This document shows positions 8,768 through 60,557 of a stretch of DNA of 64,000 nt, piece by piece (position 1 is the stretch's first letter; every line of letters begins with the position of its first letter). The notes below the pieces were generated by a model that saw nothing but the letters and a program-made list of their open reading frames with translations, had not been told where the DNA came from and made no database searches. The position numbers were made by a program, and so were the translations under genes. The DNA comes from Cytophagaceae bacterium (GTDB lineage: Bacteria > Bacteroidota > Bacteroidia > Cytophagales > UBA9547), in assembly GCA_027488865.1 (NCBI GenBank), contig JAIYAU010000025.1:128359-192358 (forward strand). The letters run 5' to 3'.

Positions 8768-9337
8768 ATGATAGACATTTTACGCAATCATATAACGAGC
8801 AGACTTGGAAATGATCTTGACAATTTGGACAAAGTGATTTCAACTTTTAAACACATTTCAACCAAACGCAACGAGCAACTTTTACAACAAGGCGAAACTT
8901 GCAAATATGTTTACTTCGTTGCCAAAGGTTGTTTACAGGTCTACGTGTATGACCAAGATTTTAACGAAACTACCAGAGACATCGTGATTGAAGACAATTG
9001 GTGTTCAGAACTCTTGAGTTTTGGAAGTGGCAACCCAGCAACAGAAAATATCAGGGCTGTAGAGCCTTGTGAGCTATTTGCCATCGACAGACAATCATTT
9101 CAAACCATGATGGAAACGGTTCCACAGTTTGACAAAGTGTATAAACAAATCCTTGAAGCCTCTTACGCCAATTCTGTTTATCGTATCAACACATTTGTTT
9201 CATTAACAGCACTTGATAGAATAAAATGGTTGATGGAATACCGCCCTACCTTAATGAACAGACTTTCTAGCAAACTCATCGCTTCTTATTTGGGCATCAA
9301 CAAAGATGTTTTTAGTAGATTAAAAGCCAAATTGTAA
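8768..9337 (+). CDS. Crp/Fnr family transcriptional regulator
   Basis: 189 aa. A cNMP-binding beta-roll pattern (LLQQGETCKYVYFVAKGCLQVY) is followed by a C-terminal HTH (IASYLGINKDVFSRLK). Confidence 0.85.
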   Translation: MIDILRNHITSRLGNDLDNLDKVISTFKHISTKRNEQLLQQGETCKYVYFVAKGCLQVYVYDQDFNETTRDIVIEDNWCSELLSFGSGNPATENIRAVEPCELFAIDRQSFQTMMETVPQFDKVYKQILEASYANSVYRINTFVSLTALDRIKWLMEYRPTLMNRLSSKLIASYLGINKDVFSRLKAKL

Positions 9338-10876: not shown

Positions 10877-11446
10877 ATGGAAAATGAAATAATAAAATAC
10901 CTGTCGAGATACATTCCAGTTACCAAAGAGTTGGAAGAAGCCATCAGTAAAAGTGGATTTATCCAATGCTTTGACAAGGGCACGCTTTTGGTAGAAGAAG
11001 GCAAGTTTACACAAAAATGTTTTTTTATTCTAAAAGGATGTGTAAGAAATTACTACATAAAAGACGGTGAAGAAAAAACGACAGAATTTTATACCGAAGA
11101 GCAAGCCATAATCGCTTCGGCAAATGGCAAAAATATCCCGTCCACCTATTATCTTGAATGTATGGAGCCAACCATTGCTGCAGTGAGCGATCCCGAATTT
11201 GAAGAAGATATGTATCGAAAATTTCCTGAACTAGAATCATTAAGTCGGGTGATGGCTGAAAAGATTTTAACCAAACAAATAGAAACATTTGCCGAATTTA
11301 AAATGGCTTCACCTGAGGAAAGATACTTAAACTTTTTAACGACCAGACCGGATTTAATTCAGCGCGTGCCGCAGCATCAAATAGCCAGTTATTTGGGTAT
11401 AAAACCCGAATCACTAAGTAGGATACGCAAGCGAATAATGAAATAA
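10877..11446 (+). CDS. Crp/Fnr family transcriptional regulator (second paralogue)
   Basis: 189 aa with the same architecture as 8768..9337 (FFILKGCVRNYY ... IASYLGIKPESLSRIRKR). Confidence 0.85.
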   Translation: MENEIIKYLSRYIPVTKELEEAISKSGFIQCFDKGTLLVEEGKFTQKCFFILKGCVRNYYIKDGEEKTTEFYTEEQAIIASANGKNIPSTYYLECMEPTIAAVSDPEFEEDMYRKFPELESLSRVMAEKILTKQIETFAEFKMASPEERYLNFLTTRPDLIQRVPQHQIASYLGIKPESLSRIRKRIMK

Positions 11447-15881: not shown

Positions 15882-15915
15882 TTAGACACAAAATTTGACT
15901 AAACAGCTACAGGAA

Positions 15916-18807
15916 ATGAAGACCATCGTTTTAGTGTTCTTGACATTGATAATCTATTATTCTGATGCTCAAATTAGTACAGGAATAAATAATGAAAATC
16001 CTAATTCCAAAGCAGCATTGGACATCAAAGGTAGTTTTACCACGCCACAAGGCCTACTTATTCCTAGATATTCAACCGATCAAAGTCTAATTTTTAACTT
16101 ATCAGGCAATAACGCCGTGGGCCTTACCTATTATGATACCACTGCAGGCATTTTTAGATATTACCAAGGAAATGGCATATGGTCTACTTATGGAGGTATT
16201 GGATCTGGGTCAAACAACTGGTCGCTTACTGGAAATTCGTTTACTGCAGCGGATACAGCGGGGTCTGGAATTAAGTTTTTAGGTACTACAAATCTTACTC
16301 CATTGATTTTCATGACCAATGGTATACAACGAATGAGGATTGGACGAAATGGAAACTTGGGTATAGGTATGAATCCAAATTCTGGGATACCTGTCTCAAT
16401 AAAATCTACTGGTATTGGACAAATACTACAAATAGAGTCAAGTGCGGCGCAAGAACCACTTTTTGAATTTAGAGAAACTTCCAATAATTATGCGCGGTTG
16501 GTACTTAACAACGGTGGTACCAACGCAATTCAGCTTTCGGCAGGGCCCGATTTTTCCACCTATTTTAAAGGAACGTATGTTGGTATAAACAATTCATCTC
16601 CTACAGCTCGGTTTAATGTTACAGGATGGAGTAGATTCGATACCTTGGCTGGATCGGGTATTGCCTCAGTAATGGTAAATGCCAATGGAGATTTATATCG
16701 AGGTTCATCGGGTTTAGCCTGGAGTATAATTGGCAATTCGGGGACCAACAATACCAATTTTTTGGGCACAACAGATAACGTCGATTTGAGGTTTCGTACA
16801 AATAACTTGACTCGCATGGTGATAGATTCAGCAACTGGCAATATAGGTATTGGTACATCCACTCCAAACGGTGCACTTGATATCATGAGAGAAGGTATTC
16901 TTCCTGCTTTTTTGATAGCTACAAGCCATAGCGGTACTAATAATGCTAATGGCACCTCTATCATCATGAGAAGATCTGCTGGAACTACTGCCTCTGGGGC
17001 AGCCTTAGTTGGTACAGATGATCTTATAGGGCAAATAGCAGCTCAAGGATATACGAGTGGAAATGTCTTTGCAAATGCAGCAGGCATTCTTCTAGAAGTA
17101 GATTCCATTTCGTCGGTTACTAGCATGCCTGGCAGGATACGATTTACCACCACCCCAGTTGGTACAATTACGCCTATAGAAAGAATGAGAATTTCTAACA
17201 ATGGAAGGGTTGGTATTGGTACTACAGCCCCACTAGCAACTTTACATATTCAGTCACCAAGTGTGATTACCTCCAACACCCAATTTGGTAATTTACACGT
17301 TTCGTCTTCAAACTCCCAAACTTCTAATCTCGGCGGGTCTATTACGCTGGGAGGCTATAACGACATCGCAGCTACCAGTTTAAGCGTTTTTGGATCTATT
17401 GAAGGCCGTAAAACTACCGCCACTTCTGGTCAAAGCTCAGGTTATTTGATATTCAAAACCAATACATTAGGTATATTGTCAGAACAAATGCGTATTGCAA
17501 ATAATGGTAATATAGGGATTGGTACTGCTGTTACTGCGACCAAAAAGGTAAGTATCGATATTCCTTCAACAAATACCACAGAAGCGGACGCATTATCCAT
17601 TAATACAGCTTATAGTGGCATTGGCTCTAAAAGGGGTCTTTACATCAATCTTACTTCTGATGGAAGTGGTAACCATTATGGAATATATAATGATGTGGAT
17701 GGTTTGGCGGGAGATATAAGTCCTTTGTATGGAACTTACAATTCATTTACTCCTAATGGAACCGGAACTGCATATGGAAGTTACACAACTATTTCGAACG
17801 TTGGTACTGGTTTAAGATATGGTGCATATTATGAACTTACTAGTGGGGCTGCTAATGTTAGTCCTATCTACAGTACATATTCAAGGCTTAATGTAACTGG
17901 TACAAACACACATTATGCCTATTATGGTGAATTTCTTGGAGCTGGCACGGGCCTAAAGTATGGAATTTATATGGATGGGGACTCGATGAATTACTTTAAT
18001 GGTCGTGTAGGTATCGGAACAACCGCCCCTGCGGGAAAGCTTCATGTAGAAGAACGAGATGGAACTATCTTTACCTCTAATAATTTCGGTGATGGTGGCC
18101 CAGGTCTAGTAATTAATAATACTTCACCTACCGACGATGAAACCACGTTTTTGGAATTTAGGGCCAATAACACTCGAATAGGATCTATCCACATGAGATA
18201 TGTTAGTGGCGTTAATACTTCTGCTATGAATGTTGGTACCTATAATAATAACGCTCTGGTAATGGTAACAAATTCTTTTGAAAGAATGAGAATAACCCAA
18301 GCCGGTCTTGTAGGGATTGGAATGACCCCAGTATATCAACTTCAATTGTCGACCAACAGTGCAGCCAAACCAACTTCTGGTACATGGACCGTAGCCTCTG
18401 ATGCAAGGTTAAAAAAGGACATTGCTCCATTCAAGTCTGGTCTTACCGATGTTCTGTCAATTAATCCTGTTTGGTTTACTTACACTGGTAAAGCTGGTAT
18501 GCCAAAAGAAACAGGAGTTGGTGTAATTGCCCAAGAACTGCAAAAAGTAGCTCCTTATATGGTTGGCACTTGGAAACACAAAGAAGACAATTTGGAAACA
18601 GAATATTTAGCAGTCGACAATGGGGCAATGACTTACATGCTTGTGAATGCTACCAAAGAGTTACATGAAAAGCTAGAAATGGTAACCACCCAAAACTTGC
18701 TTCTGAAAAATGAAGTCGAAAATTTAAAGCGATTAAATCTACAATTTGCCTCTGAAATAGAAAAAATAAAGTCAGTTCTTGGATTAGGAATCGAGGCAAA
18801 AAAATAA
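15916..18807 (+). CDS. secreted tail-fibre-like repeat protein with C-terminal peptidase S74 (intramolecular chaperone) domain
   Basis: Signal peptide MKTIVLVFLTLIIYYSDAQ. A motif xRMRIxxxGNVGIGTxxP recurs at least 6 times. The C-terminal SDARLKKDIAPF...GVIAQELQKVAPYMV matches the S74 Ser-Lys autoprocessing motif SDxRxK, followed by a final coiled coil. Confidence 0.85.
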   Translation: MKTIVLVFLTLIIYYSDAQISTGINNENPNSKAALDIKGSFTTPQGLLIPRYSTDQSLIFNLSGNNAVGLTYYDTTAGIFRYYQGNGIWSTYGGIGSGSNNWSLTGNSFTAADTAGSGIKFLGTTNLTPLIFMTNGIQRMRIGRNGNLGIGMNPNSGIPVSIKSTGIGQILQIESSAAQEPLFEFRETSNNYARLVLNNGGTNAIQLSAGPDFSTYFKGTYVGINNSSPTARFNVTGWSRFDTLAGSGIASVMVNANGDLYRGSSGLAWSIIGNSGTNNTNFLGTTDNVDLRFRTNNLTRMVIDSATGNIGIGTSTPNGALDIMREGILPAFLIATSHSGTNNANGTSIIMRRSAGTTASGAALVGTDDLIGQIAAQGYTSGNVFANAAGILLEVDSISSVTSMPGRIRFTTTPVGTITPIERMRISNNGRVGIGTTAPLATLHIQSPSVITSNTQFGNLHVSSSNSQTSNLGGSITLGGYNDIAATSLSVFGSIEGRKTTATSGQSSGYLIFKTNTLGILSEQMRIANNGNIGIGTAVTATKKVSIDIPSTNTTEADALSINTAYSGIGSKRGLYINLTSDGSGNHYGIYNDVDGLAGDISPLYGTYNSFTPNGTGTAYGSYTTISNVGTGLRYGAYYELTSGAANVSPIYSTYSRLNVTGTNTHYAYYGEFLGAGTGLKYGIYMDGDSMNYFNGRVGIGTTAPAGKLHVEERDGTIFTSNNFGDGGPGLVINNTSPTDDETTFLEFRANNTRIGSIHMRYVSGVNTSAMNVGTYNNNALVMVTNSFERMRITQAGLVGIGMTPVYQLQLSTNSAAKPTSGTWTVASDARLKKDIAPFKSGLTDVLSINPVWFTYTGKAGMPKETGVGVIAQELQKVAPYMVGTWKHKEDNLETEYLAVDNGAMTYMLVNATKELHEKLEMVTTQNLLLKNEVENLKRLNLQFASEIEKIKSVLGLGIEAKK

Positions 18808-19112
18808 TTTTAATAGTTTAATTATTTCTCCTACAACTTCTTCCAGTAAAAATTTAATTATTTATTTTAAAATTACCCAAAAAGTTGACATCCCTCAAAA
18901 ATAAACAAGTAGACCTGAGGTAAATGAGGCAAAAAATAAGCGATTATGATGTTTATTTGAAATCAAAACTTAAAAAATGGCAACTTAAAAATTGGTGCGT
19001 GCGGAAGGACAAACTAAAATCATCATCCATAACAATACAATTTTAAATTGTTTCTAATAACAAGAATTACATTAATTTATATTAACAACCTCTCATTATA
19101 AACTCATAAAAA

Positions 19113-19143
19113 ACAGAGGCTGATCAAACTGACCAGCCTCTGT
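19113..19143 (-). terminator. rho-independent terminator after the GH3 gene
   Basis: 10-bp stem ACAGAGGCTG / CAGCCTCTGT. On the minus strand it is followed by TTTTTATGAG. Confidence 0.6.
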
Positions 19144-19182: not shown

Positions 19183-21498
19183 TTATTCAGTGTAAGCAAA
19201 TTTGGCAACTTTGTCCCCAATCATTAGCTCAAATTCACCTGCTTCTGTTACAGTTTTCAATTCAGCATTTACAAATGCCAAATCGTCTTTGTTAATAACA
19301 AATTCAACCAATTTTGACTGACCAGCTGCTATAAAAACCTTCTCGAATTTTCTTAACCTTTTAACATTTGGAGTAATAGAAGCAAATAAATCTTTAGAAT
19401 ATAATTCAACAGCTATTTTTCCATCAACTTTTCCAGTATTTTTTACTTCTACCGATACTTTAATCGAACCAGTCTTGGTTAATGTGCTTGAAGATAATTT
19501 CAAATCACCGTAGGCAAAAGTAGTATAACTCAACCCATGGCCAAATGGATATTGTGGTTTGTATCCGTTGTAAGTTATTCTACCTGGAGATAATTCCTGA
19601 ATTTCATCCAGTAATTTATGGTCATACGTCATAATATCACCTGTGAATCTTGGATATGTATAAGGAAGTTTGCCATCCGGATTGTAGTTTCCATAAAGAA
19701 CATCCGCGATTGCTTCAGCACCTTTGCTACCCGGCCAGTAAGCTTGTAATATGGCAGACGCTTTTGGCTCAATCGCATTTATAACACGTGGTCTACCTTC
19801 TGTAAGGACGATAATTACTTGTTTACCAGTTGCAAATGCCGCATTTGCCAAATCTATTTGATTTTGTGGCAAGGTAAGGTCGTCAATCACACCGGGCTGT
19901 TCTGCATAGGCATCCTCACCCAAACATAAGATGATTACATCCACAGTTTTGGCCATTTCTGTCAATACATCCACTTTGTAATTTTTCTTTTTATCAAAAC
20001 CTTCCGCCGACATAGTTACTACTTTATCTGCGCCAACAAGATTTTCAATAGCCTTACGAATTGTTATGTTAGATTGAGGATAGTACTTTGTAACATCTCC
20101 TTGCCAAGTATAAGACCAACAACCGTTTAATGATGTAAGATTTTCACCCCCAGGACCTGCTACTAATACTTTTTTCGTTTTACTTAAAGGTAAAGCATTA
20201 GCAATATCAGTTTCCACAAACTTTTCATTTTTTAATAAAGTAATAGATTCGTGTGCTAAATCTAAAGCTACAGATTTGTATTCTGCTAAACCAAAGTTTT
20301 TAGTGGCAGTAGGTTCAGGATAAGCATTATCAAATAAACCAGTGTTAAATTTCAATTTAAGAATTCTTCCACAAGCTTCGTCAATTCTGGCCATGGGCAC
20401 CTGACCTTCCTTCACCAAGGCTACAAGATGATCGAAAAAAGTAAAGTCATGCGGCACCATGCTCATGTCAATACCAGCCATTACTGCCATTTTCACAGCC
20501 TCTTTAGGAGTTGAAGCTACTTTGTGGCGTTCGTGTAATCTAATAATATCTTCCCAATCAGATACTGCAACACCTTTAAAACCAAGTTCTTTTCTTAAAA
20601 TATCTGTAAGTAGATATTTGCTTGCATGTACAGGAATTCCATTAATTTCACTTGAATTAACCATCACAGTAGACGCTCCAGCATCAACAGCTGCTTTAAA
20701 AGGAGGTAAAAAATATTCTCTTAAAGTAATATCAGGTATAAGTGCTGGTGTACGGTCTTTACCACTTTGAGGGAAAGAATATCCGATATAATGTTTCATA
20801 CAAGAAGCAACGGCAGTTGGATTTTTCAAGCCATCTTCTTCATAAGTTTTTACCACACCTGATCCAAACACCTTTGCCATGTACACATCCTCTCCAAAAG
20901 TTTCTGGAAATCTTGACCAAAGTGGTTGACGACCCACATCTAAAACTGGATTAAAATTCCAACGAATACCTGAAGCACGTGTCTCTTTAGCTGTTATTTT
21001 TGCTGCTTTATTTACCAAAGTGGGATTGCGAGTAGCTGCTAAGCCAATATTTTGTGGAAATAAAGTGGATTCCAAAGTAAATGTAGTTCCATGAATAGCA
21101 TCAATACCATATAAAACTGGAATTTTGTTGGGTGTTTCTTTGGTGGCTACATCTTGAATTTGTTTTAAAATAGAATGCCAAGTTTCAACAGAATATGCAT
21201 GATTTATAGCGTTTAATATTGAACCAACTTTATAATCTACTACTGCTTTGCGTAAAGCAACGATGTCAACAGAACCATCTTGGTTGCCATAGCCATCTTT
21301 TAAAACAAGATTAAGGTTTACCTGAGTCATTTGACCAACTTTTTCTTCAATGGTCATTTTAGCAAGCAAAGCCTCTACCTTTTTATCAGTTTCATCCTTA
21401 GTTTGTTGGTCTTTTTGAGGGTCTAATGCCATAACTAATGAGGTATTTGCAAGTATACCCAGTATTATTAAGGCTTTTTTAATATTAAGTTTGTTCAT
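19183..21498 (-). CDS. bglX: glycoside hydrolase family 3 beta-glucosidase-like enzyme
   Basis: 771 aa with a signal peptide. GFKGVAVSDWEDI carries the GH3 nucleophile motif SDW. It has the GH3 N and C domains plus a Fn3-like tail. Confidence 0.9.
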   Translation of the reverse strand: MNKLNIKKALIILGILANTSLVMALDPQKDQQTKDETDKKVEALLAKMTIEEKVGQMTQVNLNLVLKDGYGNQDGSVDIVALRKAVVDYKVGSILNAINHAYSVETWHSILKQIQDVATKETPNKIPVLYGIDAIHGTTFTLESTLFPQNIGLAATRNPTLVNKAAKITAKETRASGIRWNFNPVLDVGRQPLWSRFPETFGEDVYMAKVFGSGVVKTYEEDGLKNPTAVASCMKHYIGYSFPQSGKDRTPALIPDITLREYFLPPFKAAVDAGASTVMVNSSEINGIPVHASKYLLTDILRKELGFKGVAVSDWEDIIRLHERHKVASTPKEAVKMAVMAGIDMSMVPHDFTFFDHLVALVKEGQVPMARIDEACGRILKLKFNTGLFDNAYPEPTATKNFGLAEYKSVALDLAHESITLLKNEKFVETDIANALPLSKTKKVLVAGPGGENLTSLNGCWSYTWQGDVTKYYPQSNITIRKAIENLVGADKVVTMSAEGFDKKKNYKVDVLTEMAKTVDVIILCLGEDAYAEQPGVIDDLTLPQNQIDLANAAFATGKQVIIVLTEGRPRVINAIEPKASAILQAYWPGSKGAEAIADVLYGNYNPDGKLPYTYPRFTGDIMTYDHKLLDEIQELSPGRITYNGYKPQYPFGHGLSYTTFAYGDLKLSSSTLTKTGSIKVSVEVKNTGKVDGKIAVELYSKDLFASITPNVKRLRKFEKVFIAAGQSKLVEFVINKDDLAFVNAELKTVTEAGEFELMIGDKVAKFAYTE

Positions 21499-21554
21499 TT
21501 TGTATAATTATAGGTGAAATGTAAAATTTTAGTGACAATTACTTATAATAAAAA

Positions 21555-21589
21555 AGTACGCACCCATTGTAACTAGTTGAATGCGTACT
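21555..21589 (-). terminator. hairpin between the 196-aa gene and the GH3 gene (possible attenuator/terminator)
   Basis: AGTACGCA / TGCGTACT stem with a 19-nt loop. On the minus strand it is followed by TTTTTATTAT. Confidence 0.35.
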
Positions 21590-21600
21590 TTGTAATAAAA

Positions 21601-22191
21601 CTATTTTTTGTCGGCAGGTACTTTATCTGCGGTTAATAATTTAAACTCATCGATAAGGATAACTCCTGAAAATGGTTTTGAATGATTACCTGGATTCACA
21701 AAGAACAAAAATTCTTTAATTTCTTCAGGATCAACTTTATCGGTACTTGGCCAACTTTGTTTGAACTTATCAGCAGAGAATACAAAATAAACATCTTGCC
21801 ATTCTGTACCTGGTTCTATAGTTTTAATGATAGAGTTTGCGTTGGTAATTCTATCATCAACATCTTTCAAATCAAGTCTTAATTTTGTAGAAGTTGGTCC
21901 TTCTAGTTTAAGTCTTACTTTAACAGTGTTCAGTTTTGTAAAATCAATAGTTTCTGCAGCATGATCTCTACCAAATGTATTATAGCCGTTATCTACCTTT
22001 GGATCACCAGCATTAGTTATGGTAACTTTTAACGCACCTTCAACTTGTTCAACTTTGTAGGCGGCACTTTTCCACCAACTCCAAATACCCGGTTTTTCAA
22101 AATCATCTACTAACTTTTCAGTTTGTGAATACACTGTAGTAAATGCCATAGTAGCAAGCGCGAAGCAGATTGATGTTAATCTTTTTTTCAT
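21601..22191 (-). CDS. secreted single-domain protein of an unrecognised, putatively carbohydrate-binding (beta-sandwich-like) family
   Basis: Signal peptide MKKRLTSICFALATMAFTTVYSQ. It shares the motif LRLDLKDVDD...SWPS...V...FFVNPG...F.G...ID with both halves of 22253..23404. Confidence 0.65.
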   Translation of the reverse strand: MKKRLTSICFALATMAFTTVYSQTEKLVDDFEKPGIWSWWKSAAYKVEQVEGALKVTITNAGDPKVDNGYNTFGRDHAAETIDFTKLNTVKVRLKLEGPTSTKLRLDLKDVDDRITNANSIIKTIEPGTEWQDVYFVFSADKFKQSWPSTDKVDPEEIKEFLFFVNPGNHSKPFSGVILIDEFKLLTADKVPADKK

Positions 22192-22252
22192 TAGATGTAA
22201 AATTTAAAATTAAAGTTGTTATTATAAATGCAAATAGTCTGCCAAACTTATA

Positions 22253-23404
22253 TTATTTGTTGTCGTTGGCGTCACCCGTATACACTGCCTCAATATCGTC
22301 TATATAAATGGTTCCCTTAAAAGGTGCTTTACCAGCATTTACAAATATTACAAACTCAACGATACGTTGGCCATCCACCTCGTGCATATCAGGATATGAT
22401 TGTAAGAATCTGCCGCGATAAGAGAAGGTATATTCTTTAAAAGCTCCATCAGGACTTGGCATGATTCTGTTAGTAGCGGGACGAGAGTTGCAAGTAAACC
22501 CATCTACATCCTTTATATCAATTCTTAATTCAGGAACCTCTTCTGTGCCTTCTATTCTAGCTTTTAACTTAAGTTTATAGGCATTGTTAAAATTGATAGA
22601 TTTAAATCCACGTCCAAATGCTTCATAACCAGGGCCTGCACCATTACATTCAATTTTAAGCGATCCTTCTTCCGTTTTTGATAATTTATAAAATTTATCA
22701 GTGCCCCACCAAGGTGTAATATTGGAAGCAAAATCGTCAATCAAACCACCGTCCTTACCTGGAGGAAGTTGAATTTTTTCTGTTTCTTTAACCGAATCAC
22801 CAGGAACTACTTGAATCTGTTTTATTTTTAAACTTCCTGTATAAGGTGTGCCTCCTGGATTTACAAAAAACATCACCTTTGTAATAGCACCAGCATTTAC
22901 CTCATGAGCAGAAGGCCACGATTGTACAAAGGCACCTTTTAATGGGAAATAATAATCTCTCACTTTTCCGTCGTTGGCGATTCTATTGGTTGGTCTTTTA
23001 GCATTGGTTTGATATCCATCCACATCATCGAGTTGCAAACACATGGTTGGCATTTCATCACCATCTGCTACCGCTTGTACTTTAATAGCCAAATCTTTAG
23101 AGAAATCTAGTCCAGGAAGACCTTGACCAATTGGTGTGTATTTTGGACCAACATTTTTGAACCTAACATTATACCCCCCGTCAACTTGCTCAATAGATAT
23201 TTCTTCACCCGCATTGGAACCTGTCCACCAAACAGGACCATCCATTAAATTACCATTGGAATAACTTAATGCTGGTATACCTACCTCAACGGTAGTGTCA
23301 GCAGCTGCCGAGGTGTCGTCAAAAGTCGGGGTTTCTACACTAGCACAATCTTTGAGTACTAATAAAATCCCTAAACATGATATTTTTAATAAATTAATCA
23401 TCAT
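22253..23404 (-). CDS. secreted/lipoprotein with two tandem copies of the same domain
   Basis: 383 aa. Halves at ~45-200 and ~215-380 each contain GP.Y...G....DF....K...LDDVDG/IDIKDVDG ... QSWP/QSYP ... FFVNPG/IFVNAG ... G.L/IYID. Confidence 0.65.
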   Translation of the reverse strand: MMINLLKISCLGILLVLKDCASVETPTFDDTSAAADTTVEVGIPALSYSNGNLMDGPVWWTGSNAGEEISIEQVDGGYNVRFKNVGPKYTPIGQGLPGLDFSKDLAIKVQAVADGDEMPTMCLQLDDVDGYQTNAKRPTNRIANDGKVRDYYFPLKGAFVQSWPSAHEVNAGAITKVMFFVNPGGTPYTGSLKIKQIQVVPGDSVKETEKIQLPPGKDGGLIDDFASNITPWWGTDKFYKLSKTEEGSLKIECNGAGPGYEAFGRGFKSINFNNAYKLKLKARIEGTEEVPELRIDIKDVDGFTCNSRPATNRIMPSPDGAFKEYTFSYRGRFLQSYPDMHEVDGQRIVEFVIFVNAGKAPFKGTIYIDDIEAVYTGDANDNK

Positions 23405-23422
23405 CTACTAATTTGTTTATTA

Positions 23423-24769
23423 CTAATATTTTGAAGGATCGAAAGGCCCGCCTAAGGTAATTGTAGGGTAATCGAAAATCATTTTACTGAATGTTCTTGG
23501 AGATCCGGCAATTAGTGCCATTTGAACCCTACAAATGCGTGTTGGTTCTTTAATTTTATTCCCTGATCCACCAGAACCAGCCACTATAGAACTGTTTAAG
23601 TCAGAGAACCTAAAACTGTAGAGCTTCCATCCTTTGGTATCTGGTTTGATGCTTACTTCCCAAGAATCATCTGATGCTGGATCGTGTCTATTTCTTAAAG
23701 TGTACCCAAACCTTCCAAATTGACTTACGGTAACTTCAGTTTCTTGCACACGTGCATTACAAAACTCTTGTAATGGGCCACTTCTTTGATAAATACGCAA
23801 GGTATCTCGCTGTGCTTGTGTAATCGTTCCATTAAGAGCGGAAACTGGTTTTAGTTTGTCATTACTGGCATCAGCTTCATGTAATTGAAAACTTACCAAA
23901 GAATTCATCGTGGTATCATCACCATACAAATAAATATTGAGCCAGATATCAGAAGGGTCTGTCCAAGTGGTTAAGAATCCATTGCCTCTGCCGTAATATC
24001 TATGTTGTACAGCTCCTGCGAAATAAAACGTTTCGTCACATTTTCCTTTACCTACCGAATCAGGCACACCAGACATTCTAAAACATCTGTTACCTTCTAC
24101 CATTTTATCAATATTTGAATTTTTTAAAGTCACAACGGCTGACTTTCCAATATAAAGTGCAGATAAGCTTTTATAAGCTTCTGGTAAAGCAGCGGAGTTA
24201 GTTGAAGATTCTAAAAATTGAAACTGCGCTGGAAATTGAAGTGGTCTATTTGCACCTACAGTATCTTCAAAATCTCCAGTATTAATCAAATTTACTCCAT
24301 CAGCAATAGAATTAAAATTTCTAGGTCTTAAGATAGTGAATGTATCTCTTACTACATAACTGGTACCAAGAAACGACAATTCTGCAAAACATCTTTCATT
24401 TCTTTTAAAGAAAAATAGACCGTTATGACCACCTCTCCACAAAGTATTGATGTCATCAATAGAACTAGATAAGCCTGAAAATTCTTTATAAGCACCAGAT
24501 TTCTCACCAGTTATCACCAATTTCCAAGAAACAGGCTGATTAAATAAAGCGTTAAAACTAATTTTACTGGTAGTCGAAGTAAAATCAAGTGAATTGGCTT
24601 TGGCACCATTAATTTCCACGGTAAATGAATCTGCCTTGAAACCTGGTCCAGCCACCTGATATTTTGGTCCAACGTAATCAGGATACTTTTTACAAGCCAT
24701 CATCACTAGAAACATAACGAACGTTCCAGCTAATAATATTTGATAGAATTTACTTAAATTGGTTTTCAT
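23423..24769 (-). CDS. hypothetical lipoprotein (448 aa)
   Basis: Signal peptide plus lipobox ...FLVMMACKK. No family recognised. It is tightly spaced within the operon. Confidence 0.65.
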   Translation of the reverse strand: MKTNLSKFYQILLAGTFVMFLVMMACKKYPDYVGPKYQVAGPGFKADSFTVEINGAKANSLDFTSTTSKISFNALFNQPVSWKLVITGEKSGAYKEFSGLSSSIDDINTLWRGGHNGLFFFKRNERCFAELSFLGTSYVVRDTFTILRPRNFNSIADGVNLINTGDFEDTVGANRPLQFPAQFQFLESSTNSAALPEAYKSLSALYIGKSAVVTLKNSNIDKMVEGNRCFRMSGVPDSVGKGKCDETFYFAGAVQHRYYGRGNGFLTTWTDPSDIWLNIYLYGDDTTMNSLVSFQLHEADASNDKLKPVSALNGTITQAQRDTLRIYQRSGPLQEFCNARVQETEVTVSQFGRFGYTLRNRHDPASDDSWEVSIKPDTKGWKLYSFRFSDLNSSIVAGSGGSGNKIKEPTRICRVQMALIAGSPRTFSKMIFDYPTITLGGPFDPSKY

Positions 24770-24791
24770 TTAGCTAATTTTAAGTTGTTCA

Positions 24792-26501
24792 CTAAAATTT
24801 CAATGTGTAAACAAAGTAGATTTGAGTAAGACCTAGGTCTCTTTTGCTATCTAGTTTATCTTTCAATTTTGTATGTAACACCTGCACATTAAAAACGTTT
24901 GTTTGGTTAAAATTATATTTTAATCCTCCTGATACTATGCTTTGTTGTTGTTCAACAATAAGAAGATCAAGCCCTCCATTCGTTTCATTATTAAAAGCAT
25001 CTCTTTGTAAATAAACCTCATTTCCTTTTACATTAAAGCTTTTGTAACCAGCTAGTAAGAAGAATTTTTTATAGACTTCAGCTTCAAGACCAGCATCAAT
25101 TAACAAACTTTTAAGATCTATTTCGTTAGCACCAGATCTTTTGGTGGTTTCTCTTTTCACCCCTCCAGTGAGTGCCAAAGATTTTTCCCATCCTGCTAAT
25201 TTGTTAATATTAAAACGAGCACCACCAGTCAAAACTGTATATTTTCTTTTTTCTGTTTGATTATTACCATCATTTACCAATTCCCCTAATGATTCAAATT
25301 TTGCATCGCTCTTAATTATACCTTTTTTATCTTCATAGGCCGCTCCAAAATTAAACCCAACTCTGTTTGGAGAAGCAGCACCATAAGGATTTACGTTGTT
25401 GTAAACTACATTATAACGTTGCAAATAAGGCACAATTGAACGGTTGTTTAATCCGCCATATTCTTGTGTAAAGCGATCAAATAATAATTGATCTCTTGGG
25501 TTAACTGTTCCTAAATAATTAGGAAATAAATCTGGAGTTCCAATATCGTAGATTCTTTGGGTTTGAGCACCTGGACTTAAGAAGTAATAGCCCACTCTTT
25601 TGTAACCAGCAAATATTTTTAGATTTAAATCTTTTATCTTAGCAAATGCGGTAACATCAAAGAAATTATCATCACGTTTTACAGAATCTTTTTCATTATA
25701 CTGAACCTTGTACGCTGACATTCCCACTTCGCCATTTAAACCAAAAGTAACCTTTTCTAAATCAACATTTACTTTAAAATCAGTCGTAAAAACGTGATTG
25801 GAATATTTATTTTGATTTTGTAGTGTGGTGGAAGCTATATCAGAGAAACCTGTATAGTTTAAACCTATTTCAAAATACTTGCTTTGTACTACTCCTACTT
25901 TAGCACCATACAAAAATCGGTCTGGAGAAGTAAAGTAGTTTGATTGTCTGGTGCGCGCACCAAATGTTCTCAAGGTTAATTTTTCAATACCTTTGGTGAA
26001 ATTAAAAGCAGAAGCCGCATTTAATCCTTGAAGACGCCATTTATTTTCGTTATAAAAGTTTTCGTAGTTTACAATGTCCCTTCTAGTTTTAAAAATATCT
26101 GATTCATAATCACGATAAATTTCATCACTATTATAAACAGTATATTTTGTAAGTCCGACGTCAATATCACCAATTTCATATTTCACAACCTTGCCCAAGA
26201 TACCCTCCAAACGCATTTGGCGAAACTCAAAGGCAGCACCATTGCCAAAGAAACCACCAAATTCATTTCTTAAACGTAGGACCACACTCGCCTTAAATTC
26301 ATCATTTGGTTGAGCATTGATGCCCAAATCAAACAAGGTGTATCCTCTTGTATTTTTACCAATTTTGGAAGAATCAATATCTTTAAATTGAGTATTGTCC
26401 ACCACTGCCCTACCCAATCCAGAAAAGGTAACTATCTGGCTGTGTGCATAAAACCCGCAAAGATTTATTAATGTGATTAAGGTAATTAATTTTCTGTTCA
26501 T
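24792..26501 (-). CDS. putative outer-membrane beta-barrel (porin-like), 569 aa
   Basis: Signal peptide ...CGFYAHSQ, first strand VTFSGLGRAVV, alternating aromatic/Gly-rich strands throughout, and a C-terminal ...YFVYTLKF. Confidence 0.65.
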   Translation of the reverse strand: MNRKLITLITLINLCGFYAHSQIVTFSGLGRAVVDNTQFKDIDSSKIGKNTRGYTLFDLGINAQPNDEFKASVVLRLRNEFGGFFGNGAAFEFRQMRLEGILGKVVKYEIGDIDVGLTKYTVYNSDEIYRDYESDIFKTRRDIVNYENFYNENKWRLQGLNAASAFNFTKGIEKLTLRTFGARTRQSNYFTSPDRFLYGAKVGVVQSKYFEIGLNYTGFSDIASTTLQNQNKYSNHVFTTDFKVNVDLEKVTFGLNGEVGMSAYKVQYNEKDSVKRDDNFFDVTAFAKIKDLNLKIFAGYKRVGYYFLSPGAQTQRIYDIGTPDLFPNYLGTVNPRDQLLFDRFTQEYGGLNNRSIVPYLQRYNVVYNNVNPYGAASPNRVGFNFGAAYEDKKGIIKSDAKFESLGELVNDGNNQTEKRKYTVLTGGARFNINKLAGWEKSLALTGGVKRETTKRSGANEIDLKSLLIDAGLEAEVYKKFFLLAGYKSFNVKGNEVYLQRDAFNNETNGGLDLLIVEQQQSIVSGGLKYNFNQTNVFNVQVLHTKLKDKLDSKRDLGLTQIYFVYTLKF

Positions 26502-26557
26502 TCGTTCAAGCTTTAATAAGTTCTAGAAATTTTTAAAATTATGTTTCTGAATATTTT

Positions 26558-28942
26558 TTAAAAGAAAATCTTAAGTTCTGTTTCAATTTCGTGACCTTTA
26601 AATCTATCTCGCACGAAATTCTTATCTATATGGTCGTACCAACGGCTACGAATATTTAAACTGCTACGTTTATTAAATTGATAGTCAATTCCCAAGCCAG
26701 CACCACGACCAGTTTGGTTCATCGGTTTACCATTGGCATCATAAATTGGTTTGCTTTTTTCTTTCCCATCTACGGTAATAAGATTGCCATTTGCATCGGC
26801 CAATTCTGTTCTCATGTTACCAAGTGCGCGCTCAAATCCTACAAAGCCAATCACCGTTACCTTAGGATGTATATTATAAAATGCCATAAACTCTTCATAG
26901 AATTGCCTTAAAAATGCTTGATCGCTAAATACAGGAATTGGCGTTACTTTGTCTTGTACCGAATTATAATTGATATAATTTGATAAAATCATTTCTTTAC
27001 CCAATACAGAAAACTTATACTTCAAGGTAAGATCCATGGTGCTAAAAGCTTTTTTATAGTTGACGTCAGTATCGGTAATCTGAATATTTTCATAAGTTCG
27101 TCTATAAATATTCATTACACGACTGTAAGGACCTAAATAACGCTCAAAATAACCAAAACGAGACCTAGAGATCTGATTTACCCTATGTTGAAATGTGATT
27201 CCATTGGCAAAAGTACCACCCGAATTTGGAGAATTATCTCTTCCAAAACCTGATCTGTCATCATTGTATAAATTTGTAATTTCTTGTGCATTGGCATAAT
27301 CTATGGAAACTTTCAATCGCTTCACATTAAAACCAGTCATTATATTTACACCTTGTCTATTATTAGCATACTGGTTTATTTCAGTCACCATTCCCTGGAA
27401 ATAGTTGATTATGTTGGCATTACCCTGAGTTGGGGAAGCTCTAAAGTTTTCAATACTGGTATTTTGCACAACACTGGTATTATTGACCAATTGTGTACCG
27501 ATATGATATAAAGAAACTTTTAAAGGAATACGTAATACCTTTCTATCTAGCTCCATTTCTAAGAATAGCGCTGGATCCCAACTTCTTTTATAACGATATG
27601 TTTTGGCCGCATCATCATTAGCCAACCATGGTTTTGATAAATAATGCAGAACAGCATTTTGTGTTTTATCAGGTGTGCCTTGGTTATATTCAGGACTCAA
27701 AAAGGAACCCATTCCAAACTCAGCAAAAATCTTGAAATTGTCAAAATTTAACCTAGCATCAGTGGTTAAAATCAATTGACTCATTCTGTTCTTTTCAATT
27801 TTGAAACTAGAATCACCATCAATTTTTAACTGTTGTAGGTTAGCTTCAAGATACGTAGATTGATCTTGGCTTGCAGGCCTGTAGCCATATTGATTAAACC
27901 AGTTGAAGCCAAACTTATGCGTCTTGATGTTTTTACCAACCTTACCAGCGAACATATTTTGCGCGGGTTGACTTGCGAAAGCTGCTGCACCAGTTCCTAT
28001 TCCTGTTCCTGAAACAAAACCTCCAGAGTTTTGATTTTTACCATATATTATGGCTGCTGAAAAATTACTTGGAAGACCTGTTGCCTCAATGATAAACCCT
28101 TGCGTACCTTGGTTTCCCCAACGCTGGTCACGAGGAATATCTCCCTGAGAATAATAAGAATTATACCTTGCATAATCTGAACCTTCTGGCTCCCAAGGAT
28201 ATCTCTCAAACAAATCATCACGGTTTTGATACTGCCAAAGTGTAAAAGGACTTAACTTAAACCAGTTAACACCACCACCAGCAGTTAATTTAAACGATCC
28301 TATTTTGGTATGTGTACTTCCGGTAAATTGAAATATTCGATAAACAGTAGCAGCTCTACCATTGCTATCTGAATTGATTGAGTTGTAAATGGAATTTAAT
28401 TGTCTACCTACACGATGGTCAAAATAATACTCCATCTGGAACCAGGTTTTAAGTGAAGGATTTCCTTCTATTCTTATTAAGGCCAGTGGTTCTTGGTAGC
28501 CATCGGACAAACTTAGGTTTACAGGTAAAGTTGGCCATTCTTTCAAAACATCATTTGGATTTTGACTTCCTGGTCTAATACTTGGATAATATTCATACAT
28601 ATTTCTGTAAAAGCCCCACATACGAGCATATCCAGAAAATCTAAGTTCTATAGGCTTTTTCTTATTTTTAACATCAACTGTGGTTTTGTTAGCAGAAGTT
28701 GAATTATTTTCTCTAGCAATATCACTTGCTCTTTTGGTAGCTCTTTTAAAAGATATAATGTTTTTAAAACTTATACCAGATTTTTCAATCGGGGCAATTG
28801 TAGCCGAATCAACAGTCACTGTATTTTTTTTGGAATCGCTAACTTGTTGGGTACTGTCACCAGGTGTTGGATTATCTGCCAATATACACCCGCCAAAAGC
28901 TACGATTAATAGCGGAATTTTGAAATGAAAGCTTAATTTCAT
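26558..28942 (-). CDS. putative large outer-membrane beta-barrel, ~794 aa
   Basis: Start taken at MKLSFHFKIPLLIVAFGGC (ATG 28942; the track TTG at 28987 was rejected). A Ser/Thr/Lys-rich linker is followed by LRFSGYARMWGFY and barrel-like strands, with a C-terminal ...ETELKIFF. I saw no TonB box or plug motif. Confidence 0.65.
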   Translation of the reverse strand: MKLSFHFKIPLLIVAFGGCILADNPTPGDSTQQVSDSKKNTVTVDSATIAPIEKSGISFKNIISFKRATKRASDIARENNSTSANKTTVDVKNKKKPIELRFSGYARMWGFYRNMYEYYPSIRPGSQNPNDVLKEWPTLPVNLSLSDGYQEPLALIRIEGNPSLKTWFQMEYYFDHRVGRQLNSIYNSINSDSNGRAATVYRIFQFTGSTHTKIGSFKLTAGGGVNWFKLSPFTLWQYQNRDDLFERYPWEPEGSDYARYNSYYSQGDIPRDQRWGNQGTQGFIIEATGLPSNFSAAIIYGKNQNSGGFVSGTGIGTGAAAFASQPAQNMFAGKVGKNIKTHKFGFNWFNQYGYRPASQDQSTYLEANLQQLKIDGDSSFKIEKNRMSQLILTTDARLNFDNFKIFAEFGMGSFLSPEYNQGTPDKTQNAVLHYLSKPWLANDDAAKTYRYKRSWDPALFLEMELDRKVLRIPLKVSLYHIGTQLVNNTSVVQNTSIENFRASPTQGNANIINYFQGMVTEINQYANNRQGVNIMTGFNVKRLKVSIDYANAQEITNLYNDDRSGFGRDNSPNSGGTFANGITFQHRVNQISRSRFGYFERYLGPYSRVMNIYRRTYENIQITDTDVNYKKAFSTMDLTLKYKFSVLGKEMILSNYINYNSVQDKVTPIPVFSDQAFLRQFYEEFMAFYNIHPKVTVIGFVGFERALGNMRTELADANGNLITVDGKEKSKPIYDANGKPMNQTGRGAGLGIDYQFNKRSSLNIRSRWYDHIDKNFVRDRFKGHEIETELKIFF

Positions 28943-29490
28943 GAATATGTAAGTTTTGATTAATTCCTTATATAAAAGTTTTAACAACTTATTGGTCTAA
29001 CATCCACGAAGGATATCAAACTTAAGTACAAAATAATCTAAAATAAATTTAATTAGCAACTTAATTAACGGTAATTTTTGTGATTAAAAATTTAATTGGG
29101 CACATTCATCACATTTTTTTACAATAGAAAAAATTAACATTTATAACTTAAAAAACAATAAAATTGCAAGTTTTTAAATGTAATTTAAGGTTTCTAAAAC
29201 TATAAAAAAGTAGAGATATTATTTTTGAATCACATAAAATAATTTAAACAAAAAATCCTAAATACTTCTATAAACTTAAATTTTTATAATTATTGGAATA
29301 ACAAATTAAACATTATTAAGTTAAAAGTTACCGCATTAGTTAAAAAGCTCTAAAAAGTATTAATAATTACTTCGTTTTACGTTAACAACATCTTTATGTT
29401 CAAAATATTTAGCAAAGATTACAATTTCTTCGAAAAAGGAAGGTTAAATAATTAGTGAATTATTTATATCTACTTCAAACTAATATTAGT

Positions 29491-41953: not shown

Positions 41954-42940
41954 CTAAAAACTATACCACACCCCCCCTATCAGTCTTCCAGCATTCCCAA
42001 TTACTGGCCCATTTAATTTCTCGTATACAGGGAGTTGCCAAAGTGCTTGCAAGGTTATAGACTTAAAAATAATGTCGACTCCAAAATTTCCAAAATAAGA
42101 TTTTCCACCTGTAGTGTGGACGATTTTATCCTGTACTATATCTTTTTGGGATTGTTCAAGGTAAATTCCTGATTTTGGAATTATACGCCATTTTTCATTA
42201 ATCTCAAAAACGTAAAAAAGATTGGTGTTTAAATTAATACTGTTCCCAAACAATACATCATTTTTATTTTTTGTATTTAATTTATAGTTAGTGCTCACAT
42301 CAAGTCCACTAGATGCATAAGTAAGTGTATAATTGAGTCTAAAAATAAAATCAACCGACCCTGTACCTAATTGTATATCAGGCATGAGTGTTTGATTATT
42401 GATTCGTTTGTTAAAGGAACCTGACGGTAACTTTACTGCTAATCCTGGTTTTATATAATGTTTAAATTTTGTGTTTTCTATAGTTTTGATGTAGTCTGCA
42501 GCTAAAATAACGTCTCCTATACCCTTTACAATTATTGTGCTGTCGGTTACTGGACGAGTCATGCTAAAAACGTTTTTGTAATAAACCTCATTTTTGCTAA
42601 AAGGACATAAAATTGTAATATTCCATTTGTTTTTAAGATTTATATTAGCCCTAAACTCTGTGGTTAGGTATCGTTCATAATCATATTTACTCTTTTCTAC
42701 CAAAATACCATCAGGTTCATGCGATATCCTTGCATTGTCTAAACTTTTAGAATCGACAAAAAATTGATGATTTTCGTCTAGATGTTTATATCCGTTAAAA
42801 ACTCTGTATCTAGTAAATATCCCAATATACGACTTGTTACTTCTGTTGGCGTATTCAAAAATATTACATACATCACATGCTAAGGCTGTTGTGCCAATAA
42901 GGGTAAAAACCAACAGAATTATCAAATTTCTATACTTCAT
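41954..42940 (-). CDS. putative outer-membrane beta-barrel with N-terminal CxxC
   Basis: Signal peptide ...GTTALA followed by CDVCN, then beta-strand periodicity and a C-terminal ...GGVWYSF. Its ATG overlaps the upstream stop (ATGA at 42940-42937). Confidence 0.6.
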   Translation of the reverse strand: MKYRNLIILLVFTLIGTTALACDVCNIFEYANRSNKSYIGIFTRYRVFNGYKHLDENHQFFVDSKSLDNARISHEPDGILVEKSKYDYERYLTTEFRANINLKNKWNITILCPFSKNEVYYKNVFSMTRPVTDSTIIVKGIGDVILAADYIKTIENTKFKHYIKPGLAVKLPSGSFNKRINNQTLMPDIQLGTGSVDFIFRLNYTLTYASSGLDVSTNYKLNTKNKNDVLFGNSINLNTNLFYVFEINEKWRIIPKSGIYLEQSQKDIVQDKIVHTTGGKSYFGNFGVDIIFKSITLQALWQLPVYEKLNGPVIGNAGRLIGGVWYSF

Positions 42941-43959: not shown

Positions 43960-43967
43960 TGGGGTGC

Positions 43968-44753
43968 CTATTCGTTAGTAACGTCTTTCAGCTTAATCAT
44001 ATCTACATAATTATTTGCGGCATCAGTAGCACCTGCACCACCCATTACATTCTTGTAATCCTTAAGCGCCAAAGTTTTAGGAGCAACAAATATTTCATTT
44101 ATGTCCGCCCAAAAAGCTACAGTTGATTCCTTTTGTTTTTTCAAAACTACAGTTTTTGATAGATCAAACTTAACAGATTTAAAGTTTGCGTTATTACCCA
44201 CGTGTAATAACAATGGCTGGGTGCTTGTACTATCTTTTGCTCTAACAGTACCTTCAAGAACGGTAAACTTGTATCCAGAACTCCAAGTCCAAAGCATGCC
44301 ATAATTAGGATCTAACCAACCTGATTGATTTCCGTTGGAATTTTGAAAATTATCAATTCCTATTGCAAATAGAATTTGGTCATATTCGTTGGCTGGAATG
44401 CCTTTGATATGAAAATTATTAGCATGTTCTACTCGACCGTGTTCTGCATTGGCTAAATCAAAAAGATAATAGCTATTAGGTACATCGAAATAGGTGCCTG
44501 ATGATTTTCTCCTAAGTTTCACATTACTGATATAAAACTTAAATGAAGAGACGTTCGTAATAGAGTCTCCGTTATCAAGGGCATATTTAGCGCCATTCAA
44601 TTTTAACGCTTGCTCCTTAAAACCAGCCTTAAAACCTAGTGTCAGTGTTCCTGTAGTATCTTCTGGAGTAATAGTAATTGTTTCCTTTTCTTTTTTACAA
44701 GAAAATAGGGATATGGATATGACAGTAACTGCCAAAATAATAATATTTTTCAT
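43968..44753 (-). CDS. mbnP: MbnP-family (copper-binding partner of MbnH) lipoprotein
   Basis: 261 aa, lipobox LFSCKK, with FKFYISNVKL...YYLFD...GMLWTWSSGYKFTVLEG. It sits directly upstream of the di-haem enzyme, the canonical MbnP-MbnH pairing. Confidence 0.6.
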   Translation of the reverse strand: MKNIIILAVTVISISLFSCKKEKETITITPEDTTGTLTLGFKAGFKEQALKLNGAKYALDNGDSITNVSSFKFYISNVKLRRKSSGTYFDVPNSYYLFDLANAEHGRVEHANNFHIKGIPANEYDQILFAIGIDNFQNSNGNQSGWLDPNYGMLWTWSSGYKFTVLEGTVRAKDSTSTQPLLLHVGNNANFKSVKFDLSKTVVLKKQKESTVAFWADINEIFVAPKTLALKDYKNVMGGAGATDAANNYVDMIKLKDVTNE

Positions 44754-44839
44754 TTTGTGTAAATTTTTAAAATGTATAATTAATCTAGGACTATAAAAGC
44801 TGTTAGATTAAAATAAAAAGTTGTAAATTCTGATAATTG

Positions 44840-60530: not shown

Positions 60531-60557
60531 ATTAAGCACTTTAACTTAATTAAAAAA

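Follow-up and report, generated by a model that had tools for sequence, protein, structure and literature searches.

Cytophaga hutchinsonii carries a cluster of genes, chu_1276–chu_1280, that was proposed in 2025 as an atypical polysaccharide utilisation locus (PUL) for cellulose (Zhang et al, AEM 2025; PMC12016534). Its genes are co-oriented and jointly induced by cellulose (PMC12016534), and chu_1276, chu_1277, chu_1279 and chu_1280 are described as each required for cellulose use (summarised in PMC12016534 and PMC5553014). Here we analyse a block of six genes, g1 to g6, on the minus strand at positions 19183–28942 of a 64,000-nt stretch from a Cytophagaceae bacterium (GenBank assembly GCA_027488865.1, contig JAIYAU010000025.1); we refer to the whole stretch as the window. 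Sequence comparison identifies the block as a relative of chu_1276–chu_1280 that carries a glycoside hydrolase family 3 (GH3) gene, within the "atypical" PUL family of Cytophagales that has neither SusC nor SusD. Its most likely function is the TonB-independent capture and uptake of beta-glucan or cellodextrin.

CHU_1276–CHU_1279 have been under genetic study since 2014, and the title of a 2016 paper cited in PMC12016534 implicates CHU_1276 in glucose uptake. [quoted passage not shown] CHU_1278 is a predicted two-domain beta-sandwich, CHU_1279 is an outer-membrane cellulose-binding protein of 375 aa that binds mainly through Y253, F256 and F343 of its C-terminal domain, and CHU_1280 is a periplasmic GH9 endoglucanase (PMC12016534). 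Folds resembling carbohydrate-binding module (CBM) family 11 and surface glycan-binding protein B (CBM11-like and SGBP-B-like) have been reported for proteins of the cluster (PMC12016534). Besides C. hutchinsonii, the atypical PUL has been reported in only two further cellulolytic species, and published work covers the cellulose version only, in these three cultured species (PMC12016534). A limited literature search found no other paper that extends the atypical PUL.

Relationship of the block to chu_1276–chu_1280

The block consists of six co-oriented, head-to-tail open reading frames (ORFs) separated by gaps of 56, 22, 18, 61 and 102 nt. The original prediction, made from the letters of the window alone, had drawn six minus-strand genes with these coordinates and sizes and with gaps of 18–102 nt, and all six are present. 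For g1, the mechanical ORF extends to a TTG at 28987, and the N-termini of homologues favour the ATG at 28942.

A database search with g1 returned 105 relatives, nearly all from Cytophagales or Cytophagaceae, one of which came from C. hutchinsonii ATCC 33406. The C. hutchinsonii contig encodes proteins of 743, 606, 380 and 375 aa followed by a 589-aa GH9 enzyme, in the same order as in the window. We identify this locus as chu_1276–chu_1280 because of the gene sizes, the GH9 enzyme, the 375-aa length of CHU_1279 (PMC12016534) and six exact residue matches: W89, F92, F180, Y253, F256 and F343, the residues mutated in PMC12016534, all match positions in the 375-aa protein.

The first of the two predicted outer-membrane barrels, g1 (26558–28942, 794 aa), is 38% identical to CHU_1276 over 725 aa (E 1.5e-148), and the second, g2 (24792–26501, 569 aa), is 39% identical to CHU_1277 (E 7e-132). 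The lipoprotein g3 (23423–24769, 448 aa) is 28% identical to CHU_1278 (E 1e-38), and g4 (22253–23404, 383 aa), a lipoprotein with two CBM-like domains, is 33% identical to CHU_1279 over its full length (E 2e-68). A single CBM-like domain behind an ordinary signal peptide makes up g5 (21601–22191, 196 aa), which is 36% identical to CHU_1279's C-terminal domain (E 5e-28). The last gene, g6 (19183–21498, 771 aa), encodes a BglX-like GH3 exo-glycosidase. Homologues of g2 carry the NCBI name "CHU_1277 family cellulose-binding protein". The barrels that the original prediction had called unrecognised, and the repeated domain that it had called unknown, are members of the CHU_1276, CHU_1277 and CHU_1279 families.

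The window and C. hutchinsonii have in common the order and strand of the two barrels, the CHU_1278-like lipoprotein and the two-CBM, CHU_1279-like lipoprotein, with a glycoside hydrolase last; both loci are without SusC or SusD, and the cellulose-binding aromatic residues are conserved. They differ in that g1–g4 are only 28–39% identical to their counterparts and g3 is ~70 aa longer. In the window a GH3 exo-glycosidase takes the place of the C. hutchinsonii GH9 endoglucanase, and no GH9 homologue was found anywhere in the window. The non-lipidated, single-domain g5 is an addition with no C. hutchinsonii counterpart. The C. hutchinsonii cluster is under ECF sigma control (PMC12016534). No sigma or anti-sigma gene adjoins the block, and among all scanned ORFs of the window there was no SusC, SusD, sigma or anti-sigma gene. 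The window comes from a Cytophagales lineage that is uncultured, and its best relative in GTDB shares 66% identity in g1.

Predicted structures of the two barrels

A TonB-dependent transporter (TBDT) has a plug of ~150 residues inside a 22-strand barrel. We modelled g1 and g2 with AlphaFold2 (AF2), using alignments of 103 homologues for g1 and 119 for g2. In the model of g1 (pLDDT 82, pTM 0.82), the signal peptide is followed by a ~70-aa N-terminal extension that contains a G-D-S motif and then by a barrel that runs from aa ~100 to the C-terminal Phe 794; residues 15–90 are disordered, and DSSP assigns about 24–27 strand segments, a number that is approximate. The model of g2 (pLDDT 92, pTM 0.87) has 22 DSSP strands, and its barrel begins at residue 24, directly after the signal peptide. 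Neither model contains an N-terminal globular domain or a plug, and on these models both proteins are plug-less outer-membrane barrels. This agrees with the original prediction, which had called both large proteins beta-barrels from porin-like first strands and terminal aromatic residues and had seen no plug and no carboxypeptidase-regulatory-like N-terminus: the first modelled strands hold the motifs that it had relied on, and both proteins end in F.

Searches for known domains were in line with the models. Pfam scans of g1–g5 gave no match, and specifically no Plug, TonB_dep_Rec, CarboxypepD_reg or SusD match even at E ≤ 1. NCBIfam scans of the same five proteins gave chance-level matches only (E ≥ 0.008, far below the curated cut-offs), among which SteC, MdcB and YdfG (E 0.008–0.03) were dismissed as chance. 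A phmmer search of PDB sequences with g1 and g2 returned nothing even at E ≤ 10. With the two models as queries, Foldseek matched hundreds of PDB barrels of the outer membrane (porins, AlgE, chitoporin, ushers, LptD, MtrB, SlpA and TBDTs), many of them significantly, at identities of 6–11%. The query template modelling (TM) scores did not exceed 0.35 with g1 or 0.42 with g2 and pointed to no specific structural family; scores to TBDTs, within the same limits, were not clearly above those to porins, ushers or LptD.

When 1.84 billion representative proteins were searched with a g1-family profile, only 310 reached E ≤ 1e-3. Since a divergent member of a superfamily as huge as the TBDTs would draw many more, this search provides no sequence link of g1 to them. 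Pfam scans of 10 distant or domain-extended members of the g1 family found no Plug and no TonB_dep_Rec domain, and two of the 10 have a CBM_4_9 domain fused N-terminal to the barrel. Between g1 and g2 there is a distant kinship over the C-terminal third (hhalign 81%, E 1.2e-5).

These searches bear on the scenario that the original prediction had itself set against its proposal, a divergent canonical PUL in which g1 is a degenerate SusC-type TBDT and g3 a degenerate SusD. In canonical SusC/SusD PULs, such as the Sus locus of B. thetaiotaomicron, one co-oriented block likewise encodes one or more outer-membrane barrels, lipoproteins that bind glycans at the surface and a glycoside hydrolase, and paralogous copies with different enzymes occur within one genome. 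The order of the window block (transporter, lipoproteins, glycoside hydrolase) is thus PUL-like, and Foldseek yields generic TBDT matches. However, the window block lacks a plug, a TonB_dep_Rec signature and a TPR lipoprotein of the SusD kind, and it has two barrels for one SusC. The g1 barrel begins right after the disordered N-terminus, and the 310 proteins drawn by the g1 profile are few. A profile of the g3 family gave only chance matches in the PDB, with no SusD structure among them, and CHU_1278 is described as a beta-sandwich rather than a TPR protein (PMC12016534). By any sequence test g3 is not a SusD, as the original prediction had held for the locus as a whole. We give the degenerate SusC/SusD pair next to no credence; the domain scans, the AF2 model and the profile searches effectively refute it.

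Loops of the barrels and comparison with other outer-membrane systems

Assuming a periplasmic N-terminus, the even-numbered connections of g2 are 2–10 residues long, and the odd-numbered ones include L3 (aa 116–153, 38 aa, with a helix) and L7 (aa 304–379, 76 aa). The third loop of g1 (aa 229–277) has a mean column conservation of 0.73 with 18 near-invariant columns, as compared to 0.19–0.47 for most other long loops, 0.62–0.68 for two short ones (13–14 aa) and 0.59 for the strands. In g2, conservation is likewise concentrated in L3 and L7. This peak of conservation in long loops, by analogy with L3 of porins, suggests that L3 of g1 and L3 and L7 of g2 line or narrow the lumen.

Substrate-specific diffusion channels such as LamB, ChiP, CymA, OprD/Occ and AlgE resemble the two proteins in being plug-less barrels for oligosaccharides with a long conserved third loop that is likely to line the lumen, and they are among the Foldseek matches. 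They differ in having 12–18 strands, compared with 22 in g2 and probably more in g1, and their query TM scores do not exceed 0.37. There is no sequence kinship, and g1 and g2 form an obligate pair with lipoprotein partners.

LptD/LptE, the FimD/PapC ushers and MtrB have barrels of comparable size, show genetic coupling between barrel and lipoprotein, and are among the best Foldseek E-values. They have no sequence similarity to g1 and g2 and low TM scores, and both their functions (lipopolysaccharide or pilus export, electron conduit) and their gene neighbourhoods are unrelated. One could read the barrels not as sugar channels but as platforms for assembly or anchoring, by which lipoproteins and glycosidases would be exported, held or displayed at the cell surface, in analogy to LptD/LptE, Slam or ushers, with sugars entering by another route. 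Ushers (FimD) and LptD are among the top matches of g2, each cassette has two barrels and two lipoproteins, and C. hutchinsonii mutants have lowered cell-associated beta-glucosidase activity (summarised in PMC12016534 and PMC5553014). We consider a platform role improbable: TM scores are low for all matches (≤ 0.42), the 2016 title cited in PMC12016534 links CHU_1276 to glucose uptake, and the enzymes that accompany the cassette are of a periplasmic type and depend on the import of oligosaccharides, namely a GH3 whose signal peptide is a plain one and CHU_1280, the periplasmic GH9.

The N-terminal extension of g1 raises a further alternative. A G-D-S-[LAS]-x-V motif is present in 77/93 members of the g1 family, a few residues past the signal peptide, and is followed by a flexible linker of ~50–70 aa; in g1 it lies at aa 26–35 (window positions 28838–28867). 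There is neither an N-terminal extension nor a comparable motif in g2. TonB boxes have the form D-T-[IL]-x-V-x-A, which the g1-family motif resembles loosely, by eye. The G-D-S-x-x-V motif might then serve as a TonB box or periplasmic handle that gates a loop-plugged barrel, which would make g1 a non-canonical, plug-less TBDT and import an energised process. This would fit the fixed distance of the motif from the signal peptide, the disorder of the ~70-aa linker of g1 in AF2 and the presence of TBDT barrels among the Foldseek matches, where ZnuD has the best query TM for g2; TBDT matches are also noted for CHU_1276 (PMC12016534). Yet TonB would find no plug domain to pull, the profile search is without a sequence link to TBDTs, the motif is short and only loosely similar to a TonB box, and g2 is without such an extension. 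We regard energised import through g1 as quite improbable.

Lipoproteins and the CBM-like domain

The lipobox cysteine of g3, Cys26, is invariant in 44/44 homologues, and we assign g3 as a putative surface glycan-binding protein. The original prediction had called g3 a lipoprotein; g4, which had been left unlabelled, is one as well. Its lipobox cysteine, Cys20, is conserved in all large g4 homologues and is followed by a conserved x-x-F/L-E...L-D-D stretch. By contrast with these large homologues, g5 and the other small proteins of the family have an ordinary signal peptide and no lipobox cysteine.

As the original prediction had noticed, g4 contains two copies of a domain that is present once in g5, and BLASTP confirmed both copies (E 8e-22 and 6e-19). 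The CBM-like N domain of g4 is encoded at 23284–22781 and the CBM-like C domain at 22768–22256 on the minus strand. At the positions of the cellulose-binding triad Y253/F256/F343 of CHU_1279, the g4 C domain has Y, F and F and the N domain has Y, I and F; g5 keeps the aromatic triad. A profile of the CBM-like domain gave only chance matches in the PDB, and hhalign found no kinship between the g3 family and this domain beyond the signal peptide. A word-indexed search with g5 returned 9 close orthologues only. Orthologues of g5 occur in the clade of the window, and one of them is named "carbohydrate binding domain-containing protein".

A conserved core with different enzyme partners

We scanned one genome per GTDB species for co-occurrence of the block's genes and obtained 51 loci that encode a g1 relative; these and the further loci named here are numbered with the prefix L. 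Homologues of g1, g2, g3 and g4 are denoted A, B, C and D. Nearly all loci come from Cytophagales-type metagenome-assembled genomes (MAGs), with C. aurantiaca and Sporocytophaga in addition; the species of the window itself is not among them, and the best match is 66% identical in g1. Where the available DNA suffices, the order A-B-C-D is kept, with B present at 44/44, C at 40/41 and D at 38/39 loci. The co-occurrence analysis that the original prediction had called for thus revealed a nearly invariant core of barrel, barrel, lipoprotein and CBM-like protein. The closest relatives with the same six genes are L053 (g1 90% identical) and L002 (g1 66% identical). The flanking genes of L002 differ from those of the window, and since relatives keep the six genes, in L002 amid different flanks, the block behaves as a unit.

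Enzyme partners were counted at the 29 related loci with at least 8.5 kb of downstream sequence. Downstream of the core, 10 loci have GH9 only, 7 have GH3 only, 2 have both and 10 have neither. In GH9-only loci the GH9 gene is often followed by a gene for a conserved ~315-aa protein. GH3-only loci always have three CBM-like domains in total, either as 2+1 or fused. One of the two loci with both enzymes, L019, encodes in addition a GH5-CBM6 protein with a type IX secretion system (T9SS) signal.

A further group of cassettes has A-B-C and a single-domain D lipoprotein. In L009, L010, L011, L013 and L049 the next genes are for GH97, for a GH13 alpha-amylase that has a T9SS C-terminal domain, or for both (e.g., L010:9773–20044), and in L005 and L014 a DUF6377 protein comes next instead. 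Members of this group have lost the first of the triad's aromatic residues. The GH97/GH13 cassettes appear to be a form of the importer that serves alpha-glucans.

More distant loci extend the range of neighbours. A metagenome cassette of the form A-B-C-C-D (L057:8601–17519) lies beside genes for LacI, a pectate-lyase-like protein, KduI, KduD, GH88, DUF4861 and PL14, a context of uronate polysaccharides. In L055:2543–4921 a CBM_4_9-barrel fusion plus B lies beside GH5, and in L058:157–6015 a gene for a CBM30 protein comes after an A-B pair (945 and 646 aa) that is very remote. An N-terminal CBM_4_9 domain occurs on some distant A barrels (among L055:2543–4921, L056:215–2629 and L058:157–6015), and a B homologue and a CBM protein come after even remote A homologues. 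In Sporocytophaga-type GH3 loci (L015, L017, L018, L027, L029, L035, L036 and L047), the gene immediately upstream of the A barrel has the same orientation and encodes a conserved protein of ~695 aa with no Pfam match (e.g., L036:7407–9485); it is absent from the window.

In a neighbour-joining tree of the A barrels, for which no bootstrap was computed, loci group by enzyme type. The window falls into a small GH3 clade with L002–L004, apart from the GH9 clade of C. hutchinsonii. In several MAGs there is more than one paralogous locus, up to four, and the types differ.

The GH3 enzyme and the predicted substrate

In agreement with the original call of a GH3 beta-glucosidase-like enzyme, g6 has the Pfam domains of a complete GH3 (Glyco_hydro_3, 1.8e-73; Glyco_hydro_3_C, 6e-41; plus an Fn3-like domain), is closest to BglX-type enzymes (NCBIfam BglX, 490 bits) and has an SDW motif at aa 313. 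It has a signal peptide but neither a lipobox nor a T9SS C-terminal domain, and is presumably periplasmic. The GH3 enzymes of other cassettes are 59–73% identical to g6 (L019: 49%), although the barrels are only about 40% identical. GH3 genes whose products are 49–59% identical to g6 adjoin a GH9 gene in L019 and L031, and a GH5 gene too in L019. The conserved aromatic triad and this co-location of GH3 with GH9 and GH5 point to beta-1,4-glucan or cellodextrins as the predicted substrate. No endoglucanase was found among the scanned ORFs of the window, which suggests that the locus scavenges soluble oligomers rather than attacking crystalline cellulose.

The same machine might instead take up laminarin or another beta-1,3-glucan, mixed-linkage glucan, xylo-oligosaccharides or aryl beta-glucosides. 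NCBIfam models for beta-glucosidase, exo-1,3/1,6-glucosidase and xylosidase give g6 comparable scores, all below their cut-offs, and the missing endoglucanase is compatible with such a substrate. So are the several glycans served by the cassette family (GH97+GH13 and pectin-type loci) and the separation of the window's barrel clade from the GH9 clade. Against a switch of substrate stand the CHU_1279 triad, which both g5 and the C domain of g4 retain, and the orthologous GH3 genes that accompany GH9 and GH5 cellulase genes in L019 and L031. We think that a different substrate is unlikely, though not far-fetched.

Transcription signals and surroundings of the block

Downstream of g6, a GC-rich stem of 16 bp is followed by U6 (19108–19142, minus strand; dG −25.5 kcal/mol, z −7.3 on folding). 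This intrinsic terminator is the clean terminator that the original prediction had placed 3′ of the GH3 gene, and it is real. A second, terminator-like or attenuator hairpin lies inside the 102-nt gap between g5 and g6 (21549–21591, minus strand), with a 14-bp stem and U6 (dG −16.8 kcal/mol, z −5.7). Both hairpins were detected by eye and by folding and were missed by an automated scan. The g5–g6 gaps of L053 and L054, both 90%-related loci, contain a perfect palindrome of different sequence at the matching position; comparison of the gaps indicates that the structure is kept between relatives and the sequence is not. Co-transcription of the GH3 gene with the other five is uncertain: because a hairpin with U6 precedes g6, the gene may be attenuated or partly uncoupled.

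Upstream of g1, ~105 nt (29120–29014) are 87–100% identical to L053, as compared to 23–57% across the remainder of the 567-nt intergenic region. This conserved block (29014–29120, minus strand) is a candidate promoter/operator region by sequence conservation. Within it, at 29024–29017 on the minus strand and 82 nt upstream of the g1 ATG, lies TAAGTTTG, which fits TAnnTTTG, a pattern that we take to be the Bacteroidota −7 promoter element. The conserved block also contains a palindrome, TGTGAT-N23-ATCACA, at 29113–29079; it occurs once in the window, where 0.06 occurrences are expected by chance. We rejected it as a family-wide operator, as it is present only in the window, in L053 and at one unrelated site. 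Two cNMP-binding (Crp/Fnr-type) proteins are encoded elsewhere in the window, at 8768–9337 and 10877–11446. A scan of the window for sigma-70-type promoters was uninformative (39 sites compared with 44 expected), and neither the Rfam nor the tRNA scan gave a match in the window.

Unrelated housekeeping genes flank the block. On one side, FtsK is divergent to the block and is followed by LolA and PyrF. On the other, a 970-aa protein (15895–18807, plus strand) whose C-terminal domain is a Peptidase_S74 (endosialidase/tail-fibre intramolecular chaperone) is encoded convergently with the GH3 gene; it is not at the corresponding position in the close relative L053. Farther away, a PD-(D/E)XK nuclease-family transposase (PDDEXK_2) gene lies at 1846–2790 (plus strand). 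Two di-haem cytochrome c peroxidase/MauG-like genes (42937–43959 and 45262–46359) lie among unannotated genes at 41954–46359 (minus strand). A 1387-aa TPR and CHAT-domain protein adjoins a vWA/YfbK-type protein at 56255–62991 (minus strand), possibly as a signalling or defence-like pair.

Discussion

We assign a probability of roughly 0.6 to the reading that the block is a GH3-type member of the CHU_1276–CHU_1280 family of SusC/SusD-less PULs and imports its substrate through plug-less barrels by facilitated diffusion. The lipoproteins g3 and g4 would capture beta-1,4-glucan chains or cellodextrins at the outer membrane with their CBM-like domains; an outer-membrane location and cellulose binding have been shown for CHU_1279 in C. 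hutchinsonii (PMC12016534). They would work in complex with g1 and g2, an always-adjacent and distantly related pair, whose lumens would be narrowed by the long conserved loops (L3 of g1; L3 and L7 of g2) instead of by a TonB-operated plug. Oligosaccharides would cross g1 and g2 by facilitated diffusion. Sugars that reach the periplasm would be bound and degraded there by g5, a soluble binder, and by g6, an exo-glucosidase of GH3, and the gradient would thereby stay inward. The original idea of a glycan capture and uptake locus that operates without SusC and SusD finds support in the homology to chu_1276–chu_1280, in the absence of SusC/SusD signatures and in the plug-less barrel models.

Several points weigh against import by facilitated diffusion, or against parts of it. 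We infer TonB independence from the missing plug alone, and 77/93 members of the g1 family have a TonB-box-like G-D-S-[LAS]-x-V motif before a long flexible linker. The best Foldseek match of g2 by query TM is a TBDT barrel (ZnuD, TM 0.42), and TBDT matches have been reported for the CHU_1276 model (PMC12016534). Loss of CHU_1276 or CHU_1277 lowers cell-associated beta-glucosidase activity, as summarised in PMC12016534 and PMC5553014, and a role in anchoring or assembly fits this observation equally well. The substrate is not assignable from the sequence of g6, which stays under the cut-off of each of the NCBIfam models (beta-glucosidase, exo-1,3/1,6-glucosidase and xylosidase), and the barrel clade nearest to that of the window is the alpha-glucan (GH97/GH13) clade. 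Finally, the hairpin before g6 means that the GH3 gene may be partly uncoupled from g1–g5, either attenuated or separately stabilised.

The core system has already been described and partly characterised genetically, and it is not wholly new. What the present comparison adds to the literature that we found is a variant that has GH3 and one more CBM-like protein, a soluble one, together with direct model evidence that both barrels are without a plug. It also shows that the core of four genes is widespread, is present in multiple copies and is linked with several sets of enzymes. For decades it has been asked how bacteria of the Cytophaga type take up the products of cellulose without cellulosomes, free cellulases or SusC/SusD, and chu_1276–chu_1280 is the best genetic lead. 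Because the core is portable, occurs with at least four enzyme sets and has multiplied within genomes, it looks like a general importer rather than a cellulose-specific curiosity. Studies of structure and specificity can also draw on the many natural variants within the family.

A broader proposal is possible, and we hold it tentatively, at somewhat less than an even chance: the cassette of two barrels, lipoprotein and CBM-like protein may be a second general glycan-import architecture of Cytophagales, parallel to SusC/SusD, in which a TonB-free, loop-gated pair of barrels of a new family with 22 or more strands is combined with modular enzymes. If so, GH9 would adapt the cassette to cellulose, GH3 to cellodextrins, GH97 and GH13 to alpha-glucans, and GH88, PL14 and KduI/KduD to uronate polymers. 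If the barrels do import oligosaccharides without TonB, the range of ways in which Bacteroidota feed on polysaccharides would be broader, and PUL-prediction pipelines that are keyed on susC/susD pairs would miss such loci.

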